In this document: one piece after another, positions 1,503 through 29,015 of the stretch
How positions within the stretch are numbered: position 1 is the first letter of the stretch
Layout of the letters: each line of letters begins with the position of its first letter
Source: Nostoc punctiforme PCC 73102
GTDB lineage: Bacteria; Cyanobacteriota; Cyanobacteriia; Cyanobacteriales; Nostocaceae
Reading direction: 5' to 3'
Length of the DNA: 32,000 bases
NCBI RefSeq assembly: GCF_000020025.1
Contig: NC_010628.1
Span: forward strand, 3,840,001-3,872,000
Translations under genes and position numbers: made by a program
Notes under the pieces: generated by a model
The model's input: the letters and a program-made list of their open reading frames with translations, nothing else
Databases searched by the model: none
Told to the model about the DNA's origin: nothing

Positions 1503-3608
1503 TCAGAGTTTACCAGACATTTTACCTAGGCTGGCAACAACGGCAATTAACTCAGCTGCTCTAACTGGTTTAGCAACATGTAGCTGAAATCCTGCCGCTA
1601 ATGCTTCTTTATAATCTTCTACCCTGGCGTATCCCGTCAGTGCAATAGCAGGAATCCGCCCGCCTAGCTCTGGTTCAAGTTTTCTGATTTTACGCATCAG
1701 CGCGTAGCCATCCTCACCTGGCATCCCAATGTCGCTGATTAACACATCTGGATGTAATTTTTCTAGTGCCTCAAGTGCCTGTCCTGTAGAGCTAAAAGCA
1801 CTAACTTCTGCTCCACACTCTTCGAGTACTGCGGTAATCCACTGCCGCACATCTGCCTCGTCATCTACAACCAATACCCGCAAGCCACTAAGAGGATTGG
1901 GGACTGGGGATTGGGGATTGGGGGCTGGGGACTGGGAAAAGAAGTGTAAATTATTGTCTCCTGCCCCTCTGCTTCCCTGCTCCTCGGTCACTGAGCGTAG
2001 TCGAAGTGCTGCCCCTCTGCTTTCTTCTAAAATCGGCAACTTGACTGTAAATGTCGCTCCTTGCCCTATTCCTTGGCTTTGGGCATCAATTGTACCACCG
2101 TGTAGTTCTACCAGATGAAGTGCGATCGCTAACCCTAAACCTAGTCCTTTATTTGAACGAGTATGAGTACTATCTGCTTGCCAAAAGCGCTCAAATACGT
2201 GAGGTAGGAAATCTGGACTGATGCCCTTACCGGTATCAGTTACTTCAATTTGGAGATAATTAGGAATTGCGGGTTGGGAAAACTCTTCCCTACTCCCCAT
2301 TTCCTTAGACAATCGCACTTCAACTCGTCCACCGTTGGGTGTAAATTTGATGGCATTAGTAAGTAGATTTAATACTACTTGTTGCAAGCGATCTGAGTCA
2401 CCCCAAATTTTTTCTATTGAGGTATCAAGTATAGTCTCAAGTTGAATATCCTTAGCATTTGCCAGTGATTGTACAACCTCAATTGCGGCTGTAATTACTT
2501 CTACTAAATCTACCAAATCAATGGACAGTGAAAGCTCTCCTCTAACAATCCGCGAAATATCAAGTAAGTCTTCAATAAGTTGCATTTGCAAATTAGCATT
2601 GCGCTCAATTATCTCCAGCGCGAGAGTTGCTTTAGCTTCATCTAACACACCCGTTTGTAACATTCCAGCCCAACCGATAATTGCAGTCATGGGGGTACGT
2701 AATTCGTGAGAAACTATTGCTAAAAATTCGTCTTTGGAACGGTTTGCGGCTTCTGCTGCACTTTGGGCAGCTTCGCTAACGGCGCGTGCAGCTTGTTCTC
2801 GCAGTAATAGTTGCTCTTTTTCTTCTTCAGCCTGTTTACGTTCAGTAATATCTTGCATAATTTTAGAAAAGCCGCGCAGATTTCCATCGTCATCTAGTAA
2901 AGGTGTGATGAGACAATGCGCCCAGAAAAATGTACCATCTTTACGAATATGCCAGCGATTCTCCCTAGAAAAACCTTCAGCTACTGCTTTTCTTAATACT
3001 TGCTTGGGTAGTCCCTGCTTAATTGCTTCAGGTGAAAAAACTCGTTCAAAAGGTTGACCAATTATTTCTGCTTCCTGATAACCTAAAATACGTTCTGCTC
3101 CAATGTTCCAAGTGGTAACGTTACCGTTTGGATCTAGCATAAAAATTGCGTAATTAGTTACTCCTTCTACTAATAGCCGATAACGTTCTTCACTTTGACG
3201 CAGACTGTCTTGACTTTCACGTAGACGCTCATAATTTTGCAGGGCTGCTACCGCGTTCATTTGGGCTTGTGATCGCGCCTGACGCAATGCAGTGTTAAGT
3301 AAGCTAATCAACAACGCTACTAACACAAACTGAAGCAACCCCACTACACTGAACCCAGTAATAGCCAGAGAATAAAAAGGTGGTAAAAGAAAGTAGGCGC
3401 AGACTATAGCAGACAAAAAAGTCGCCAACAGTCCTGGGTTTAAACCACCATACCAGGAACTAACCATGACAGCAGCTAAAAACAGTGGGTAAATGGAATT
3501 CAGCCTGTGTAGCTGCCATAGAAGCAGTGTCAGTAGTAAAGCCAGTAAAACCGTTAAGAATGCAATGCCATAGCCTTGTAGTTGCGATCGTCGCGTCAAT
3601 CCCCACAT
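1503..3608 (-). CDS. Hybrid sensor histidine kinase (TM region, PAS, HisKA, HATPase_c, C-terminal receiver)
   Basis: 701-aa ORF. It has four N-terminal TM helices, a PAS-like segment (ERYRLLVEGVTNYAIFMLDPNG...ITERK) and the H-box FLAIVSHELRTPMTAI. The N, G1 and G2 boxes are NLLTNAIKFT, DTGKGI and GLGLGLAI. The receiver is RVLVVDDE...ISDIGMPGEDG...LTGY...K. Confidence 0.9.
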   Translation of the reverse strand: MWGLTRRSQLQGYGIAFLTVLLALLLTLLLWQLHRLNSIYPLFLAAVMVSSWYGGLNPGLLATFLSAIVCAYFLLPPFYSLAITGFSVVGLLQFVLVALLISLLNTALRQARSQAQMNAVAALQNYERLRESQDSLRQSEERYRLLVEGVTNYAIFMLDPNGNVTTWNIGAERILGYQEAEIIGQPFERVFSPEAIKQGLPKQVLRKAVAEGFSRENRWHIRKDGTFFWAHCLITPLLDDDGNLRGFSKIMQDITERKQAEEEKEQLLLREQAARAVSEAAQSAAEAANRSKDEFLAIVSHELRTPMTAIIGWAGMLQTGVLDEAKATLALEIIERNANLQMQLIEDLLDISRIVRGELSLSIDLVDLVEVITAAIEVVQSLANAKDIQLETILDTSIEKIWGDSDRLQQVVLNLLTNAIKFTPNGGRVEVRLSKEMGSREEFSQPAIPNYLQIEVTDTGKGISPDFLPHVFERFWQADSTHTRSNKGLGLGLAIALHLVELHGGTIDAQSQGIGQGATFTVKLPILEESRGAALRLRSVTEEQGSRGAGDNNLHFFSQSPAPNPQSPVPNPLSGLRVLVVDDEADVRQWITAVLEECGAEVSAFSSTGQALEALEKLHPDVLISDIGMPGEDGYALMRKIRKLEPELGGRIPAIALTGYARVEDYKEALAAGFQLHVAKPVRAAELIAVVASLGKMSGKL
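1894..1935. repeat. STRR1-type heptamer tract (6 units) inside the kinase CDS
   Basis: The + strand reads GGATTGG GGACTGG GGATTGG GGATTGG GGGCTGG GGACTGG. On the coding strand this is TCCCAGT CCCCAGC CCCCAAT CCCCAAT CCCCAGT CCCCAAT. The 42 bp equal 14 codons, translated as SQSPAPNPQSPVPN. Confidence 0.85.
1961..2022. repeat. Perfect 14-bp direct repeat pair (CTGCCCCTCTGCTT), 48-bp period, inside the kinase CDS
   Basis: CTGCCCCTCTGCTT occurs at 1961-1974 and again at 2009-2022, bracketing 34 bp. The segment is translated as the linker ...SRGAALRLRSVTEEQGSRGAG... Confidence 0.7.
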
Positions 3609-8126: not shown

Positions 8127-8254
8127 AGCGATGTCTGACGACAAGCCGCTAACGCTCCTTCTCTGCGAGACGCTACGCGAACGTCGCTACCGCTTCTCTA
8201 CGAGAGGCTTGTCTGCGACACGCTCCGCGAACGCCAACGCTAATGCGTCTACGC
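8127..8254. repeat. Small-dispersed-repeat-like element, long/nested copy
   Basis: It starts AGCGATGTCTGACGACAAGCC and ends GCGTCTACGC, the same ends as the 57-bp copy at 14369-14425. It contains internal 23-bp imperfect direct repeats: CTCTGCGAGACGCTACGCGAACG at 8161-8183 and GTCTGCGACACGCTCCGCGAACG at 8211-8233. Confidence 0.55.
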
Positions 8255-8392
8255 ATCACTGCCTTAAAAAGCGAAATGAATTCTCAAAATGCTTATAAAA
8301 GCGTTGGTTTAACCAATACTGCTTATGAAAGAGAAATTCAGCCTTTAAGTCAGTTTTTAATCAAGTTTAACAGTTTTAATAGGAGGAACAAT

Positions 8393-8881
8393 ATGATTTT
8401 ATATAAACTGGATGAATACAATCCTAACTATACCAATGAAATTTTTAATGGTAATGACATTAAAAACTTTGATGTTTACGCTGATGATGCTAGGGTTGGT
8501 TCTGTTGTCAACATATTAGTCGATGAAAATGATGCCCGTTTCCGGTATTTTATCATTGATACAGGCTTTTGGATTTTCGACAAACAAGTTTTGCTCCCGG
8601 TCGGTTTAGCTCGTCTGGACTATGACAACAAACATCTTTTCGTTTCTAAACTGACTAAAGAGCAGGTAAAAAATTTACCCGAATTTAGCGAATCTTTAGC
8701 AATCGATAATGAGTATGAAGAACGAGTTAGAGGAGTTTATCGACCTTTAGTGCCATCAGCGATGTCAGGTATATTAGGTACTCCTGCTTTTTATAATTAC
8801 ACGATGGAGCCTTACTTTTACGAAATGAACGATCCTAACTTCAGAACCTATGAAGAAAATTTGAGAAATAAAAGAAATTAA
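8393..8881 (+). CDS. PRC-barrel domain protein
   Basis: The ATG at 8393 is preceded by AGGAGG. VYADDARVGSVVNILVDENDARFRYFIIDTG...VLLPVG fits the PRC-barrel pattern. The longer ORF from 8243 begins inside a repeat element and lacks an RBS. Confidence 0.7.
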   Translation: MILYKLDEYNPNYTNEIFNGNDIKNFDVYADDARVGSVVNILVDENDARFRYFIIDTGFWIFDKQVLLPVGLARLDYDNKHLFVSKLTKEQVKNLPEFSESLAIDNEYEERVRGVYRPLVPSAMSGILGTPAFYNYTMEPYFYEMNDPNFRTYEENLRNKRN

Positions 8882-9102
8882 AATATAACAAAATTTTGAC
8901 AGTTCTGCTAGTATAGCTGCTTGAATACTTTATAATTAATACATGCCGCTAGTTGTTTTTAGATTGAATTAATTTTCATCAAAAGCAAGCGGCTATTTCT
9001 AATTTATAAATGTATATTTTTGATGTATTGCTATCAAATTGCTGAGATTAATCAAGCTACAAAAATAGTTTCGTTTGTTCAAATTCAAAAGAGAATAACT
9101 TT

Positions 9103-9483
9103 ATGAATACTCGATTAATGCGCTCAATAATTTTACCATTGGGCTTGATTTCTACATTGTTTTTGGGAATGTTACCCTTTAGTTTTGCACCTGCTAAGGC
9201 ACAGACAAATAATGCCTTAGCAGCTAGGTTTTCAAAATACTCTCCCACAAAAGCCCCTTTTCTTGCACCTGGATCTCGTGGACAGGCTGTGAGAGATGTG
9301 CAAGCTGCTCTACAAAGGTTAGGATTTTATAATGGAGCTGTTGATGGTATCTATGGCTCTAGAACCGCTACAGCAGTAGCTACTTTTCAGCGATCGCACA
9401 GAATAGTTGGTGATGGTAGGGTAGGAGCGCTGACGTGGCAAGCTTTACGTAGTAGTATAGCTCCCCGCCGTCGTTCTTTCTAA
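9103..9483 (+). CDS. Secreted peptidoglycan-binding-domain protein
   Basis: Signal peptide ...FAPAKAQ, then GSRGQAVRDVQAALQRLGFYNGAVDGIYGSRTATAVATFQR (PG_binding_1 signature). Confidence 0.8.
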   Translation: MNTRLMRSIILPLGLISTLFLGMLPFSFAPAKAQTNNALAARFSKYSPTKAPFLAPGSRGQAVRDVQAALQRLGFYNGAVDGIYGSRTATAVATFQRSHRIVGDGRVGALTWQALRSSIAPRRRSF

Positions 9484-9620
9484 CTGTAATAGCGATGCAA
9501 ACAACGGCAATTACAGAATTAGTGCAATTTGTGCGATCGCAACTACATAAACATCATTGAGTCAGATGTGCTGATTGTTGTTTTTGCGATCGTTGGCATT
9601 TTTATGATCCTAATGGCAAT

Positions 9621-9775
9621 TCAAAACGCTTTTTGTAGTTCTTTAGATGTGAGAGATTTGATTAAACTTAACGGTAGTGGTTGCTGACTAATTTGACTAA
9701 CATAATCTTTACTCAAATATGGAAGGTAACTTGGCTGTTGGGCAACATAGGTTTCAAAAAAAGGAACACTTAAAG
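9621..9775 (-). pseudogene. Detached 3' end of the DUF1400/alpha-beta-hydrolase gene (see 12273-13806)
   Basis: The minus-frame translation is LSVPFFETYVAQQPSYLPYLSKDYVSQISQQPLPLSLIKSLTSKELQKAF*. It has no start codon. It joins in frame to ...RRYVKALS at 12273-12281 once the IS is removed. Confidence 0.75.
9768..9775. repeat. Target-site duplication ACTTAAAG (left copy)
   Basis: An identical 8-mer lies at 12273-12280. Both copies directly abut the terminal inverted repeats. Confidence 0.8.
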
Positions 9776-9812
9776 GGGTCTTGGCAACTTTTGGTGATCT
9801 AGGTTTGGGGAA

Positions 9813-9847
9813 GGCAGAGGGCAGAAGGCAGAAGTCGGAAGAAGGAA
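9813..9847. repeat. GGCAGAA-type heptamer array (left subterminal)
   Basis: GGCAGAG GGCAGAA GGCAGAA GTCGGAA GAAGGAA. Confidence 0.85.
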
Positions 9848-9856
9848 ATTATAGAT

Positions 9857-10207
9857 TCAAACTTTGAGTTTGTTTAAACTTGCAACTAATATACTTTGCA
9901 TTTCCTCAACTTCATTTAATAGGGGAATAAAAAGGTTTTTATCTGCCAAATCTACTTCTTTAGCAATGATTAATTGTGTATCGAGTTCTCTTAAAGAGCC
10001 TAAAGCAATATGCAAAAACTGTACGTATTCTTGCTTTGAACGTCTTCCATATCCTTCGGCTATGTTGGATGCTACAGATACAAAAGAACGTCGGATTTGA
10101 CTAGTTAAACCATACAATTCTGACTGAGGAAATAGACGGGTAAATTTATAACAATTGATAGCAAGTTGAACCGCTCTTTGCCAGATAAACTGATTTCTAT
10201 AACTCAT
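9857..10207 (-). CDS. Four-helix-bundle protein (23S rRNA intervening-sequence protein / Avd-like family)
   Basis: 116 aa. FIWQRAVQLAINCYKFTRLFPQSELYGLTSQIRRSFVSVASNIAEGYGRRSKQEYVQFLHIALGSLRELDTQL is the classic signature of this family (NIAEG, S..E..T). Confidence 0.85.
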   Translation of the reverse strand: MSYRNQFIWQRAVQLAINCYKFTRLFPQSELYGLTSQIRRSFVSVASNIAEGYGRRSKQEYVQFLHIALGSLRELDTQLIIAKEVDLADKNLFIPLLNEVEEMQSILVASLNKLKV

Positions 10208-10239
10208 ATAATCAAGTGTAAATTGTCAAAATTTTGTCC

Positions 10240-12125
10240 TCAAATAGCCAACAAAAACCGTCGCTCCAGTAAATCTATTTTGGCGCGACCATACATCTGC
10301 CGCTTTAACATTTTCAGTCGATTAATATGCCCTTCAACTGGGCCATTACTAACTGACATAGTTACACCTGCTTTCACAGCATCGTAGTCAGACTCTAAAC
10401 TAACAGCAAAGGAGCGCAACAAAGAAACCGAGCTGTTTTTAGCTTTGTTTAACCAAGCATCGAGCTGCTCGCTCAGACGTTGACGCACAACAGATGCTCT
10501 CCTGTTGAGCTAGTTCAATAGCTGACTTCAAATCAGAATGGGCTGTTTGTAGTTGAGCGATGATTTCACGCTCATTAAGCTGTATTAATTCTGGTCGTCG
10601 CAAGACTAAAGCTGTGACGCGACTGGGAGTGAGAGGACGATGGGAGGAAGAACTAACCCTGGGGGATGCGTTTTTCTTTGAACACTTTGCTGGCTCAAAT
10701 CCGGGCAAGGTCTTGAGATAACGAGTGAAGCGAGCGACCGTGGCATAACCACCGATATAGCCGCAGGTGCGAATTTCTTCAAACAGTTCTTGGGTGTTGT
10801 GGTTCCCGCTATTCCAGCGACTGAGGAGGTAATCTTGATTTGGGTTGAGAAGACTCAGACCGTGGTCGCTACGCTCACGACGTTCGGTAAAAGTTGAGCA
10901 ACGCTTGTAATTGAATACGGTAGTTTTAGAAACTCCCAGGGATTGAGCGATTGCTAGCCCTGATAAGCCAATAGACCGCAGTCTCCAGACTTGCTCATGG
11001 ATTTCCCTCCGTCTATCCCGTGCTTTGGCGGATTGGACTTTTCTTTTTAAAGATGTGTTTTGGGGAAACCTTGGCACAACTGGGCTTTTATTAGCCTCAG
11101 TAATCAGGGAAAGGTTCTCGGGGAAAGGCAGACGGCAGACGGCAGAATGTTAATTTGAGGGTTTTCCTGTGCAGTCAATCCGTCTGTATTCTCTGCCAAA
11201 AAGGGTTTAACATCCCCACACTCGTTTTGAATTTCAGTGGTTTGCAATTGGGTGGGGTATGTATCCCCATCCAATTCCCGAATGCCTTCAATTAGTGCTG
11301 TTTCCACCTCTAAATGCACTTTAGTATCAGTACTAAATACTTGTTTTTCCACAACTTTTACGTACTTTGGCATGAATACCAAAGACTTGATAGAGCGTTT
11401 GAGATAAGTTCTGCAATAAGTGAAAACGGTCTGCAACTTGAATGGCTTCTGGTGCGCCTTGACGAATGCCACTTTCATAAGTTTTTGACCGATCTCGTGA
11501 GACGACTTTGACACCAGGGTGGGCTTTTAACCATTCTGCCAAGGTTTCAGCCAAGGCATCTTTTAGTAGAGCAATTGGTCGGCTGTGTTCCAGGTCAATT
11601 AGTGCTGTGCCGTAAGTTTTACATTTACGTGCATCAAAAGTCGTCTACCCCAAGAGTATGTGGCGTTACGATTGGTGGCAGTGGGATTGAGCGGACTAAA
11701 TTTAACGGTGTGTTGCGAGAAACTTTTATCCCCCATTGCTGTAAGAGTCTTTCCCCTGCTGCACCACCATTAGCTAAACCAATCACACTCAGTCGTTGAG
11801 CTAAACGTAGAGTTTTTCTAGCCCAAGGTGCGGTTACATTGGTCAGCCTTTCTGTAAAAATGCGTCGTTTACACAAACTATTGATGCAAAAAAACTTCCT
11901 TACCCGTAACTGTAAGGTAATGCTGTAATCAGCCCAGGGTAAGTCTACTAATAAGCGTTCATAGCTACTATGAATTTTTTGAGTTGGTTGGTTACAAACT
12001 GGACAGTTAACTACTCTACTGATTGCGGAAACAATCAAATTTATCTGAGTTTTTATCTTGTCAAGTTGGCAATTCTCAAGTCTCAGATTGCTTGAATCTG
12101 GTAATAGGTGAGTTAGCACCGACAT
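10240..12125 (-). pseudogene. ISL3-family transposase, at least 4 frame disruptions
   Basis: The N-terminus carries a zinc finger (CPVCNQ...HSSYER...FFC...C). The DDE region reads LGVDDF|DARKCKTYGTALIDLE...VVSRDRSKTYE...ADRFHLLQNL. The C-terminus SNGPVEGHINRLKMLKRQMYGRAKIDLLERRFL is diagnostic. The pieces lie in different frames, with breaks near 11637, 11350, 11100 and 10500. Confidence 0.85.
11127..11147. repeat. Internal GGCAGAC/GGCAGAA heptamer array inside the transposase region
   Basis: GGCAGAC GGCAGAC GGCAGAA, preceded by AGGTTCTCGGGGAAA. This resembles the left-end AGGTTTGGGGAA that precedes the array at 9813. Confidence 0.7.
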
Positions 12126-12193
12126 AGAACATGAGTAAGGCTTATTCCTCAAATGTTTGATGGAGTGAAGTTTGAAGTATCTCGATTATATCT

Positions 12194-12228
12194 TTCTTCC
12201 TTCTGCCCTCTGCCTTCTGCCATCTGCC
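12194..12228. repeat. GGCAGAA-type heptamer array (right subterminal, inverted)
   Basis: TTCTTCC TTCTGCC CTCTGCC TTCTGCC ATCTGCC, which is the reverse complement of GGCAGAT GGCAGAA GGCAGAG GGCAGAA GGAAGAA. Confidence 0.85.
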
Positions 12229-12272
12229 TTAAGTGCGTAACTTTTCATCATCACCAAAAGCTGACAAGAACG

Positions 12273-12280
12273 ACTTAAAG
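12273..12280. repeat. Target-site duplication ACTTAAAG (right copy)
   Basis: Identical to 9768-9775. Confidence 0.8.
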
Positions 12281-13061
12281 CTTTAACATAACGACGTGCT
12301 AATCCTGGACTAGGGCCGATTGCTTCTGTAGGAACGGGAACGGTTGCATTAGGTGATTCTGCAATAGTAGAAAAGTGTGTTCCACCATTGATGAGGGTTA
12401 AATATTTGTTTGTAGTTGTTAACCAGGTAAAAGGTTGAATTTGTTCTAGTAAAGCCGGAGCAACAGTATCAGAACTACCAGATATAATCATCACTGGAAT
12501 TTTGATTTGGCTGAGGCTAGCTTGACCAAAAATACTGCTATCAACTGGATTAATTGCAATTACTGCTTTTATTCTTGCATCCGATAAGTTGTATTGAGCA
12601 TTGGGTAAATTGACAGCCAAACATTGAAGTAAAAGCGAAATATTTAATGTATCTTTCAAAGCTGGGCAGTCGGTTTTTAATTGTTTAAAATTAATCTTTG
12701 CACTTGCTAAAGCTAACACCGTATATCCACCGAATGATTGACCTAATACACCAATTTGGTCTAAATTCAAACGTCCCTGGAATGTTGGATTAGACTTTGA
12801 TAAACGAGTGAGTTCATCTAGAAGATATTTAATATCTAAAGGTCTGTCAATAAGTTCTCTGGGATTGGTAACTTTATCTGCTGTACCTGCTAATAATGCT
12901 TGCAGTTGTTGTGAATTACTTTCAGGATGTTCTGGAACAGCAACCACAAAACCATAGGATGCGAGATGTTCAGCTAAATACGCAAAACTTGTTCTGTCAG
13001 AACCAAGTCCGTGCGAAATGACAATTATCGGACGAGAAGTTTGAGCAACTGGGAGGTAAAT

Positions 13062-13147
13062 ATCAGCCGGGAATTTTCTGAGACGCGATATGTCATTAAG
13101 AATAATCAGCCGGGAATTTTCTGAGACGCGATATGTCATTAAGAATA
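13062..13147. repeat. Perfect 43-bp tandem duplication (2 copies)
   Basis: ATCAGCCGGGAATTTTCTGAGACGCGATATGTCATTAAGAATA occurs at 13062-13104 and again at 13105-13147 with no mismatch. Confidence 0.95.
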
Positions 13148-13833
13148 ATAGTTTGCTTTAAAAAACGAAAACTTCCGGTTTTTCCTAAATCCATTAATGG
13201 AACAGTTTTAAGTGTAGAAGCTGTAATTATCTTTTGTTGGGATTGTTGGTTAATTAGAGCTACTGCATTTTGAGTTTGATTTACTAAATCTTGTAATGAC
13301 TGTGCTATTGCCAAACTCTGGTCTAAATTAATTGAAATTGCACTCGCTGGAAACTTGCGTAATACATTTAAAAGCGTAAAATCTTTTTGATCTGCGGCTG
13401 ACAAAATTAGTGCCGCACGAATTGCATAAAAGCCTGATAAGTTAGATTCTGTTTGAATAACTTTCCCCAGCCTTTGTAATAATCGTTCACCAATTGGTGT
13501 ATAAAGAAACTGCGAAATTTCTACTTTATTTAAGGGAATGCGAGTTAGTAAAACTTTCTGTAGTTGAGTTAGTTGCTTTTTGTTTACATACTGACTATAT
13601 CCAGCTAACTCATTGTCTATTTTGCCTGTTTTTGCATAGGTTTCGAGCGAATTAATAGGGACAGACCTTTCAAAAAGTCCGTAATTAAACCTTATACGTT
13701 CTGCACCTAAAGCCTGATTTGCAGTTAGTATAGGCAGCAACCCGATACTAAAAATTCTCAAAGCCAATTTCAGCCAAACAGTTTGTTTACTTATAAGATG
13801 AGTCATTACATACTACTTGAGATACTACATTTA

Positions 13834-17717: not shown

Positions 17718-18176
17718 TTACTTAAAGCGACAGGATTGCTCTATAGTCGGATTCTCTTCAAGCTGTACCATTATCAGAACAGCTGGCGCATCGCCTACTG
17801 TTCCAGATAAGTGACCCTTATTACCTTGCGCGTCCGCCTTCGTGCCTTGGTCTTCTCCAAATGAAATTTCGCCAGGGCCCATCTCGACTCGCTGCCCGTC
17901 CATAGTCTCCACAAACCAGCGTCCCGATAGAGGGATTACCCACTGGGGTTTCGGGTTCTCATGCCAGTTACCAACCCATCCCACGGGTAGCACAGTAAAG
18001 GTGATTGTAGCACCAGATTGCTTCAAATTAGAAAGCCACTGTGGTGAGGTATCTGGAGCTATGCCTTTCTCAATGAAGTCTTCAATTTGACAACGGGACT
18101 GGTGACTTATACCATCGCGGTCAGTCCAGACGTGCCAGTAATCAATTGTTGGCTTGTATGATGAGTTATTTTTCAT
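17718..18176 (-). CDS. Cupin-domain protein
   Basis: 152 aa. G.WH.NP...VIPLSGRWFVETMDGQRVEMGPGEISFGED is a beta-barrel cupin pattern. Confidence 0.65.
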   Translation of the reverse strand: MKNNSSYKPTIDYWHVWTDRDGISHQSRCQIEDFIEKGIAPDTSPQWLSNLKQSGATITFTVLPVGWVGNWHENPKPQWVIPLSGRWFVETMDGQRVEMGPGEISFGEDQGTKADAQGNKGHLSGTVGDAPAVLIMVQLEENPTIEQSCRFK

Positions 18177-28987: not shown

Positions 28988-29015
28988 AATTACGAATTAC
29001 GAATTACGAATTAAT
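28988..29015. repeat. AATTACG heptamer array (3 perfect units plus 1 degenerate) abutting the ZIP start codon
   Basis: AATTACG AATTACG AATTACG AATTAAT, then C ATG (29017). Confidence 0.85.

Follow-up and report, generated by a model that had tools for sequence, protein, structure and literature searches.

Introduction

Insertion sequences (IS) of the ISL3 family typically measure 1.2-2.3 kb, with one gene of about 400-440 aa, and their terminal inverted repeats (IRs) are about 15-39 bp long in the ISfinder definition. Members with passenger genes exist, such as ISPpu12, in which the transposase is accompanied by extra genes between the IRs. Besides ISL3 elements, two other described groups are relevant here, namely the PF05635 family of four-helix-bundle (4HB) proteins, for which structures have been solved and which to our knowledge has no known function outside the Avd proteins of retroelements, and the heptamer arrays of cyanobacteria and xanthomonads, which have been catalogued since 1990 and for which we know of neither an origin nor a partner protein. 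The PF05635 family has been linked to 23S rRNA intervening sequences (IVS) (PMC10053308). Regarding the arrays, GGGAATC and GGGGA(C/T)T repeats have been described in Xanthomonas and Nostoc with typically 3-5 units; they lie directly behind stop codons or ahead of start codons, and two arrays often form an inverted, convergent pair. For GGGAATC in Xanthomonas, 70-75 such pairs were catalogued, and an association with mobile elements was not found (Rehm et al., 2015; PMC4692102). In a 32,000-nucleotide stretch of the Nostoc punctiforme PCC 73102 genome (contig NC_010628.1, positions 3,840,001-3,872,000; hereafter the window, in which all coordinates below are counted unless a locus label is given), an ISL3-type transposase gene, a PF05635 gene and inverted heptamer arrays are found in one element. 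We consider it very probable that this element is an 8-bp-duplicating ISL3-type insertion located inside a hydrolase gene, with a dead transposase and a 4HB cassette whose arms are the heptamer arrays. No description linking ISL3, 4HB/PF05635 and heptamer arrays was found in the searchable open-access literature.

An ISL3-Type Insertion in a Hydrolase Gene

The element is 2,497 bp long (9776-12272) and is bracketed by two copies of ACTTAAAG, whose third occurrence on the plus strand of the 32-kb window is found only at 17720. Direct comparison of 9776-9798 with the reverse complement of 12250-12272 gives matches at 19/23 positions, i.e., 23-bp imperfect IRs, and the IR core pattern CTTGNCANCTTTTGGTGAT has exactly two matches in 32 kb, both at the element ends (0.18 expected), with still only these ends recovered in the window when three mismatches are allowed. 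A preliminary description of this DNA, made from the sequence alone, had reported the 8-bp duplication and the imperfect repeats and proposed that they fit the ISL3 family. Both were found as claimed, and the 23-bp IRs and 8-bp repeat go together with ISL3 transposase domains. The features of the locus are the following:

9621-9767, minus strand: 3' part of the hydrolase gene, codons 498-545 and stop (reconstruction and orthologue alignment)
9768-9775: left copy of the target-site duplication, ACTTAAAG, 8 bp (single-copy at the site in the orthologue)
9776-9798, plus strand: left terminal IR, type A, GGGTCTTGGCAACTTTTGGTGAT, whose terminus matches related ends
9810-9848, plus strand: GGCAGAN array, 3' arm, C-rich on the gene strand, starting 9 nt past the 4HB stop codon
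9857-10207, minus strand: intact gene of a 116-aa 4HB protein (PF05635/TIGR02436, "23S rRNA intervening-sequence protein" family)
10240-12125, minus strand: ISL3-family transposase pseudogene in five frame segments (tblastn against an intact 636-aa relative; Pfam)
11127-11147, plus strand: internal array, with three consecutive GGCAGAC/A heptamers within the transposase frame, where the intact relative has one unit
12193-12230, minus strand: GGCAGAN array, 5' arm, G-rich on the gene strand, upstream of the transposase
12250-12272, minus strand: right terminal IR, type B variant, CGTTCTTGTCAGCTTTTGGTGAT
12273-12280: right copy of the target-site duplication, ACTTAAAG, 8 bp
12281-13806, minus strand: 5' part of the hydrolase gene, codons 1-497 (Pfam DUF1400, E 4e-45, and hydrolase families; orthologues)
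13062-13147: perfect 43-bp tandem duplication in 2 copies, frameshifting the hydrolase after codon ~236 (Tandem Repeats Finder (TRF), 100% match; single ...LNDISRLRKFPAD... in orthologues)

The hydrolase frame (open reading frame (ORF) 12186-13139) reads ...RRYVKALS, continues into codons of the element and stops at 12186, and the minus frame at 9773-9621 reads LSVPFFETYVAQQ...KELQKAF*, both as noticed previously. Joining in silico 13806-12281, minus one 43-bp copy, to 9775-9621 reproduced the announced 1638 nt, i.e., a 545-aa open frame and its stop codon, whereas the frame breaks immediately if both 43-bp copies are kept. The claim that removal of the element restores the ORF is thus correct once a 43-bp copy is also removed, as was said in the body of the preliminary description, but not for removal of the element alone, as its title had it.

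Over 100% of its length, the reconstructed protein aligns with 545-546-aa DUF1400 alpha/beta hydrolases from many Nostoc genomes (83-90% identity), and the alignment runs without gaps across both the junction (...RRYVKALS|VPFFETYVAQQ...) and the duplication site (...LNDISRLRKFPADIYLPV...). In the orthologues, the 48 residues whose codons lie to the left of the element are conserved through to the stop codon. In the DNA of the closest orthologue (L128), one CTTTAAGT occupies the site, i.e., the site is empty, and the neighbours are the same as in the window, with a Na/H exchanger and a second hydrolase upstream. The insertion is shown by this empty site, and the comparison with uninterrupted orthologues that had been suggested came out as anticipated for their length, the junction, the C-terminus and the DNA. 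The element entered a DUF1400/alpha-beta-hydrolase gene of 545 codons and separated codon 497 from codon 498. A DDE transposase, provided in trans, would have cut the target with an 8-bp stagger, and repair would then have duplicated ACTTAAAG; such a staggered cut is suggested by the 8-bp duplication together with the known behaviour of the family.

The two 43-bp copies (13062-13104 and 13105-13147) are 100% identical and represent a second, independent inactivating lesion of the hydrolase gene. As a perfect short tandem repeat is a typical product of mis-assembly, the duplication might instead be an assembly or sequencing artefact, leaving the element as the sole disruption of the gene. An independent short-read Logan contig (SRR6394273) is identical to window positions 8224-13091 and ends inside the duplication, 30 nt into its first copy, where a de Bruijn graph breaks if the reads contain the repeat; with this testimony, albeit indirect, we consider an artefact improbable. 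The hydrolase gene is a young pseudogene that was hit twice and that contains no further stop or frameshift, and since both lesions are perfect repeats and the gene is otherwise undamaged, the locus records the recent loss, in Nostoc punctiforme, of a conserved DUF1400-hydrolase gene by two independent lesions.

A Defective Two-Gene Member of the ISL3 Family

Fragments encoded in the window match Zn_ribbon_ISL3 (PF14690, E 2e-9) and DDE_Tnp_ISL3 (PF01610, E 3e-8 and 3e-9), and the intact relative located on plasmid pCC7120gamma of Nostoc sp. PCC 7120 reaches 344 bits with the ISL3 equivalog model NF033550 (cut-off 180). On these domain matches, the ISL3 assignment holds. The element combines the DDE and Zn-ribbon models, terminal IRs and the 8-bp duplication with mobility, as indicated by multiple copies at unrelated sites in many Nostocales genomes and by the empty site in orthologues. 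With 2,497 bp, two genes and, in its relatives, transposases of 553-636 aa containing a helix-turn-helix (HTH) insert, it departs from the typical size and single-gene layout of the family, which is a variation of layout and not a defining failure. Autonomous members have a single uninterrupted transposase frame, and in this respect the window copy is a defective member.

Using the intact 636-aa relative as query, tblastn recovers the transposase as segments 12125-11637, 11653-11345, 11367-11140, 11131-10502 and 10497-10246, in frames -1/-2/-3/-2/-3, respectively. The corresponding lesions are +1 near 11630, +1 near 11365, +14 at 11135-11148 and +1 near 10498, and an in-frame 42-nt difference from the intact relative is located at 11294. 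The extra 14 nt extend the internal heptamer run from one to three units and therefore shift the frame. With four frameshifts, the transposase gene is dead and the copy non-autonomous, i.e., unable to move by itself; it could move only if mobilised in trans, as must be the case for related MITEs (miniature inverted-repeat transposable elements) of ~260 bp. Some IS families (IS1, IS3) do use programmed -1 frameshifting, and the element could in principle be an intact autonomous IS producing its transposase in this way. However, four shifts of mixed sign and size (+1, +1, +14, +1) would be needed, the relatives encode the transposase in one 553-636-aa frame, and we are not aware of frameshifting in the ISL3 family, which makes this explanation extremely unlikely.

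A composite origin, from two nested or fused elements, would treat the array at 11127-11147 and the IR-like CTTGGCACAACT at 11067 as a second left end. Positions 11066-11150 do loosely resemble a left end (CTTGGCA..AACT, then AGGTT..GGGGAAAGGCAGA), and the C-terminal half of the transposase occurs as two deeply diverged alleles in a mosaic family. Yet in the intact relative this region, with only one heptamer, lies within the uninterrupted 636-aa frame, neither a matching right end nor a duplication is present, and the IR core pattern has no match at 11066-11150 even with 3 mismatches. The internal array was rejected as the end of a nested element because it sits in the open frame of the intact relative, and a composite is highly unlikely.

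Some further properties of this transposase family can be mentioned. The PCC 7120 copy (L001 ~3060-3100) contains a 42-nt in-frame stretch, ..CTTCCCTACGGGACGCTGCGCGAACA.., which is missing from the window copy and which resembles the small repeats that are commonly dispersed in coding regions of Nostoc. Across the mosaic family (L001 2018-3928, L003 2004-3665, L047, L059, L101), the N-terminal half of the transposase and the 4HB gene are 78-96% alike, the two alleles of the C-terminal half having a synonymous divergence (dS) above 1.4, and the DDE domain contains an HTH insert of the IS21-like type, as well as an alpha-bundle tail that is also found in DesA (NF049919). At L061 (2782-7498), a related element reaches 4.7 kb, its 4HB gene being split by a ~2.4-kb insertion with a long ORF, and its 8-bp duplication TATAAACT is intact.

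Related Elements, Their Termini and MITEs

The full-length relative on pCC7120gamma has 84.7% DNA identity over 98% of the element, and further full-length relatives are found on plasmid alpha of PCC 7120 and on plasmids of Nostoc HK-01. RefSeq labels their genes "ISL3 family transposase" and then "four helix bundle protein". The insertion in the window is a routine event of a known kind, the element being a defective copy from an ISL3 clade of Nostocales whose family assignment is already given in RefSeq.

Related ends were collected by an IR-core scan, using one genome per species, and were kept if heptamers were also present. Among the matches listed, all 64 related Nostocales ends start with GG(T/G)TCTTG at the position equivalent to 9776/12272, and exact 8-bp duplications (e.g., TCTTGATA, CATATTTT and AACTTATG) flank 11 paired copies (L005, L016, L034, L045, L046, L047, L059, L061, L067, L084 and L086). 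The termini placed at 9776 and 12272 by the preliminary description are thereby borne out by independent copies, which end at the same bases and have 8-bp duplications. The IRs of the related copies L001 and L059 match at 25/25 positions, and the terminal base of the right IR is C in the window and G in every relative examined.

Two types of ends can be distinguished, type A (...GGCAACTTTTGGTGATCTTGGTTGGGG then heptamers) and type B (...TGTCAGATTTTGGTGATGATGAAAGGTTACGCACTTTAA then heptamers). The window element has a type A left end and a type B right end, a combination seen in the ~260-bp MITEs, whose hosts are Nostoc, Tolypothrix, Calothrix and Fischerella, and the TGTCAG variant and subterminal sequence of its right end recur at the right ends of MITEs. 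Because this type A/B combination is found in MITEs, the four IR mismatches correspond to a conserved end variant and are not private to the window copy. The clean ends obtained for this Nostocales ISL3 clade and its MITEs will be an aid to annotation.

MITE loci of about 250-270 bp are L004 601-872, L005 601-871, L006 ~601-852, L016 7350-7621 and L034 4829-5091, with further ones at L045, L046, L084 and L086, and exact 8-bp duplications are present in this MITE family. The interiors of the MITEs and of the element have no similarity by eye, leaving an origin of the MITEs as deletion derivatives unsupported. In the flanks of 61 distinct related ends, the duplicated 8 bp are AT-rich and often CATAWNNT-like, GAA(C/G) often stands just outside, and the repeat AGCCAGGATTAA is a second recurrent target; the context in the window is GAAC|ACTTAAAG (9764-9775).

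The Passenger Four-Helix-Bundle Gene

The 4HB protein is recognised by PF05635 (E 8e-36, 122.9 bits, cut-off 33.8), TIGR02436 (128 bits, cut-off 24) and NF008911 (183 bits, cut-off 137), and its nearest solved structures are 2GSC (E 4.5e-20) and 2RLD, pentamers of unknown function. A protein named from N. punctiforme is 100% identical to it. Its gene is found downstream of the transposase in 7/7 full-length relatives, including a divergent 1.8-kb subfamily, and the ratio of nonsynonymous to synonymous divergence (dN/dS) among element-borne 4HB copies is 0.01-0.06 (dS up to 0.87) versus 0.14-0.32 for the transposase. Owing to this presence in full-length relatives and to its low dN/dS, the 4HB gene is, judging by these substitution patterns, a conserved and selected component of this ISL3 clade and not recent cargo. 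The PADLOC defence-system models gave no match for the 4HB protein or the transposase, and Rfam detected no RNA family, including rRNA, in the window. A promoter-like site on the minus strand at 9876-9848 (TAAACA, 17 nt, TATAAT; 10/12 matches, a consensus match only) is directed outwards at the left end of the element, so that it faces the hydrolase gene's orphaned 3' part.

Heptamer Arrays Accompany 4HB Genes

The two-gene element is laid out as IR, G-rich array, transposase, 4HB gene, C-rich array and IR. Its two array arms are 38 nt long and 84% complementary, each having 3-4 canonical and 1-2 degenerate units (TRF period 7, 2.9-3.9 copies), so that the "inverted arrays of five GGCAGAA-type heptamers" reported earlier are a fair count of canonical plus degenerate units. 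The pattern GGCAGANGGCAGA has 8 matches in the window, all within the element (0.07 expected), and the predicted duplex of the arms has an energy of -54.3 kcal/mol versus -26 +/- 4 for shuffles.

Two sets of relatives separate the arrays from the transposase. Four cyanobacterial ISL3 relatives have no 4HB gene (in Leptolyngbya, on Nostoc HK-01 plasmid 6, in Stanieria, and Acaryochloris ISAcma23), and in these four the TTTTGGTGAT IR core is kept and heptamer arrays were not found. Conversely, stand-alone 4HB genes 75-78% identical to that of the window, with no transposase and no IR, are present in Lusitaniella, Symploca, Microcoleus and Stanieria, and inverted arrays of the same GGCAGAN unit bracket them all; they also have the ACTTCAAACTT leader, which in the window comes after the 5' array.

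The association extends to distant proteins, for which we used 80 metagenomic loci encoding 4HB proteins 45-55% identical to that of the window. In a strict test (6-9-mer arrays on both sides, with reverse-complementary units), 32/67 testable 4HB genes were bracketed versus 0/159 control windows, and an ungapped inverted-repeat score of at least 13 in the 200-nt flanks was reached by 39/61 4HB genes versus 4/209 other ORFs (Mann-Whitney p = 7e-22). The units at these distant genes are different ones (AGGGAAC, AGGGACT, AGGGTGT, GGCAGTC, GGCAACG, and TAGGGCAG x12), and the 7- or 8-mer units differ between 4HB protein clades (L147-L222, L231-L236, L139-L141), the similarity of heptamer units tracking that of the 4HB proteins (Spearman -0.54). 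The polarity is maintained, with the G-rich arm always 5' and the 3' arm beginning 1-30 nt past the stop codon. Five more 4HB genes on named cyanobacterial plasmids (L231-L235) have other heptamers, three being cleanly bracketed and two having a weak 3' arm, and a Stanieria plasmid gene (L236) is the Stanieria GGCAGAN case already counted among the stand-alone genes above. Two other measures were set aside: the RNAduplex energy of the 150-nt flanks did not discriminate (median -81 versus -76 kcal/mol) because long GC-rich flanks pair anyway, and a search of the flanks for 6-9-mer arrays of whatever sequence, with TRF at a low threshold, discriminated only weakly (64/67 versus 75/159), the paired-inverted criterion being used instead.

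From these genomic comparisons, the arrays co-occur with 4HB genes and are not a feature of the ISL3 transposase, and a gene-plus-inverted-array cassette of the PF05635 family appears to be general across bacteria.

Several observations weigh against our interpretation of the element and its arrays. In the element, the transposase sits between the 5' arm and the 4HB gene, an arrangement not seen in any stand-alone cassette; both arrays are retained in the MITEs, which have no 4HB gene; and 56/60 GGCAGAN arrays in the IR-selected Nostocales loci, among the matches listed, adjoin an ISL3 IR. A cis role of the arrays in transposition is thus possible. Pushed further, the same facts would make the arrays subterminal binding sites of this clade's ISL3 transposase and the 4HB gene an unrelated hitchhiker. 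Multiple subterminal sites are known in Tn7, Mu and Ac/Ds, the arrays lie at a constant 36-46 bp from the terminus in the 64 related ends (again among the matches listed), and the extra IS21-like HTH region of these transposases could read extra sites. This explanation is however at odds with the lack of arrays in ISL3 relatives that share the IR core and have no 4HB gene, with stand-alone 4HB genes having the same arrays in the same polarity without transposase or IR, with the same architecture, built from other heptamers, around distant 4HB genes with no ISL3 nearby, and with the co-divergence of heptamer units and 4HB protein; we regard it as unlikely. Regarding the insertion itself, four related copies (L001, L003, L004 and L112) have no matching 8-bp duplication; their flanks appear rearranged or belong to a repeated target present in inverted copies, suggesting later rearrangement. 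In addition, all ten positions listed for the identical 4HB protein correspond to this one locus, no second copy from the same genome being among them, and the element may already carry an ISfinder name.

With arrays as the arms of a 4HB cassette, the preliminary description can be completed. All its details are correct as far as they go; it overlooked the dead transposase, the intact 4HB gene, the right end shared with MITEs and the association of the arrays with 4HB genes, and it did not mention the third array at 11127-11147.

Other arrays deserve a mention. In Lusitaniella (L139, at 516, 679, 4447, 5753 and 5938), GGCAGAN arrays are also found between other small genes, away from the 4HB gene, among them two convergent arrays whose spacing of about 160 bp holds no gene. 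The window itself contains two more heptamer arrays, at 1894-1936 (GGACTGG/GGATTGG, STRR1-like, i.e., resembling a short tandemly repeated repetitive (STRR) sequence, inside ORF 1503-3608) and at 28988-29013 (AATTACG x3.7); there is no 4HB gene near either, the sole 4HB gene of the window being that of the element.

Placement and Possible Roles of the 4HB Cassette

Stand-alone cassettes sit between operon genes, for example between nuoB-like and nuoC-like genes. In Microcoleus POL10_C6, a ~610-bp cassette is located between hypD and hypE (L141 1170-1800), and counterparts from Microcoleus/Allocoleopsis (L227 and L228, 3560-3740), whose HypD is 95-96% identical, are empty, with hypD, an 18-bp spacer and hypE. 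At the filled site, the spacer and the first few hypE codons are replaced, and comparison of filled and empty hypD-hypE sites revealed no target duplication. The cassette therefore has filled and empty sites, and its insertion is not ISL3-like.

The 4HB gene of the window and its 3' arm have precisely the arrangement of a stand-alone cassette, and both arms are enclosed by the ISL3 IRs. This ISL3 lineage very probably carries a 4HB cassette, the heptamer arrays being the cassette arms. These arms may pair as a long RNA or DNA stem, for instance in a read-through RNA (predicted -54 kcal/mol), or, alternatively, they may be binding sites for the 4HB protein; one of these two is the likeliest role of the arrays.

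A connection with the xanthomonad repeats is worth considering. Repeat 15 in supplementary file 2 of Rehm et al. (2015) is a GGGAATC array located between bccP (XCC0517) and XCC0516 and overlapping the XCC0516 start (PMC4692102). XCC0516 of Xanthomonas campestris is the 4HB protein whose structure is PDB entry 2GSC, and of the solved structures this is the one nearest to the protein of the window. The link with the arrays is not noted in the paper, in which the 4HB gene is not mentioned. By analogy with repetitive extragenic palindromes (REPs) and their REP-associated tyrosine transposases (RAYTs), PF05635 proteins might be matched, as cognate partners, to the G-rich heptamer arrays dispersed in bacterial genomes (STRR, Xanthomonas GGGAATC, GGCAGAN), each gene residing in a self-contained cassette bracketed by its own heptamer and the protein binding, processing or propagating the arrays, and the window element would be an ISL3 transposon merged with such a cassette. 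We put this idea forward tentatively and hold it to be rather doubtful. If it is true, the ISL3 merger would give the cassette a DDE-driven means of spreading. The gene-plus-inverted-array cassette itself ties heptamer arrays to the PF05635 family.

Comparison with Known Systems

The more remote parallels concern the 4HB protein. Avd of diversity-generating retroelements belongs to the same fold superfamily of pentameric four-helix bundles, but the window element has no template or variable repeats, its 4HB protein scores 19.7 bits with the Avd model NF033474 (cut-off 80), and no reverse transcriptase is found among the element ORFs. The 23S rRNA IVS with an "S23p" ORF (Leptospira, Coxiella) are closer in organisation, since they also have a PF05635 ORF bracketed by inverted repeats and a predicted long stem. 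It is from these sequences, which are located in 23S rRNA genes and cut out of the rRNA by RNase III, that the PF05635 name derives. In contrast, the 4HB gene of the window is part of an IS inside a protein gene, in a window with no rRNA gene, and its arms are tandem heptamers.

With REP/RAYT (TnpA-REP) systems the likeness is one of analogy only: a small gene is flanked by inverted repeat copies, arrays of the same unit occur away from the gene in at least Xanthomonas (GGGAATC) and in one Lusitaniella locus (GGCAGAN), and different gene clades go with different repeats. Unlike RAYTs, the 4HB protein has no known catalytic fold, and a spreading of arrays by 4HB proteins would be suggested by analogy only. 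As for the arrays, they share with the STRR type tandem 7-nt units, short arrays and a mostly non-coding location, all of which are found in the window. The GGCAGAN unit differs from STRR1-3 and is presumably a different member of the class. It also distinguishes the window arrays from those of Rehm et al. (2015).

Among mobile elements, ISPpu12 also has passengers, whereas the window element has one passenger, a 4HB gene that is accompanied by repeat arms of its own and is present clade-wide and under strong purifying selection. The nearest relative named in RefSeq is the ISL3 element ISAcma23 of Acaryochloris marina, which shares the TTTTGGTGAT IR core. The family likeness resides in the Zn-ribbon, HTH and DDE_Tnp_ISL3 domains, the terminal IRs and the 8-bp AT-rich duplication. 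The clade of the window is distinguished by its length of 2.3-2.6 kb, a 553-636-aa transposase containing the IS21-like HTH insert, the 4HB gene and the subterminal arrays; 4HB gene and arrays are both missing from ISAcma23 and from the relatives in Stanieria and Leptolyngbya, and the window copy is a pseudogene. The closest counterparts are the elements of PCC 7120 plasmid gamma (transposase WP_010994074 and 4HB protein WP_010994075) and of HK-01 plasmid 3, which have the same gene order, ends and arrays and 4HB proteins 94-95% identical to that of the window. These copies have an intact transposase and two type A ends; in the window element, the right end is of type B and the transposase gene has gained 14 nt of heptamer sequence and, at three places, a single nucleotide.

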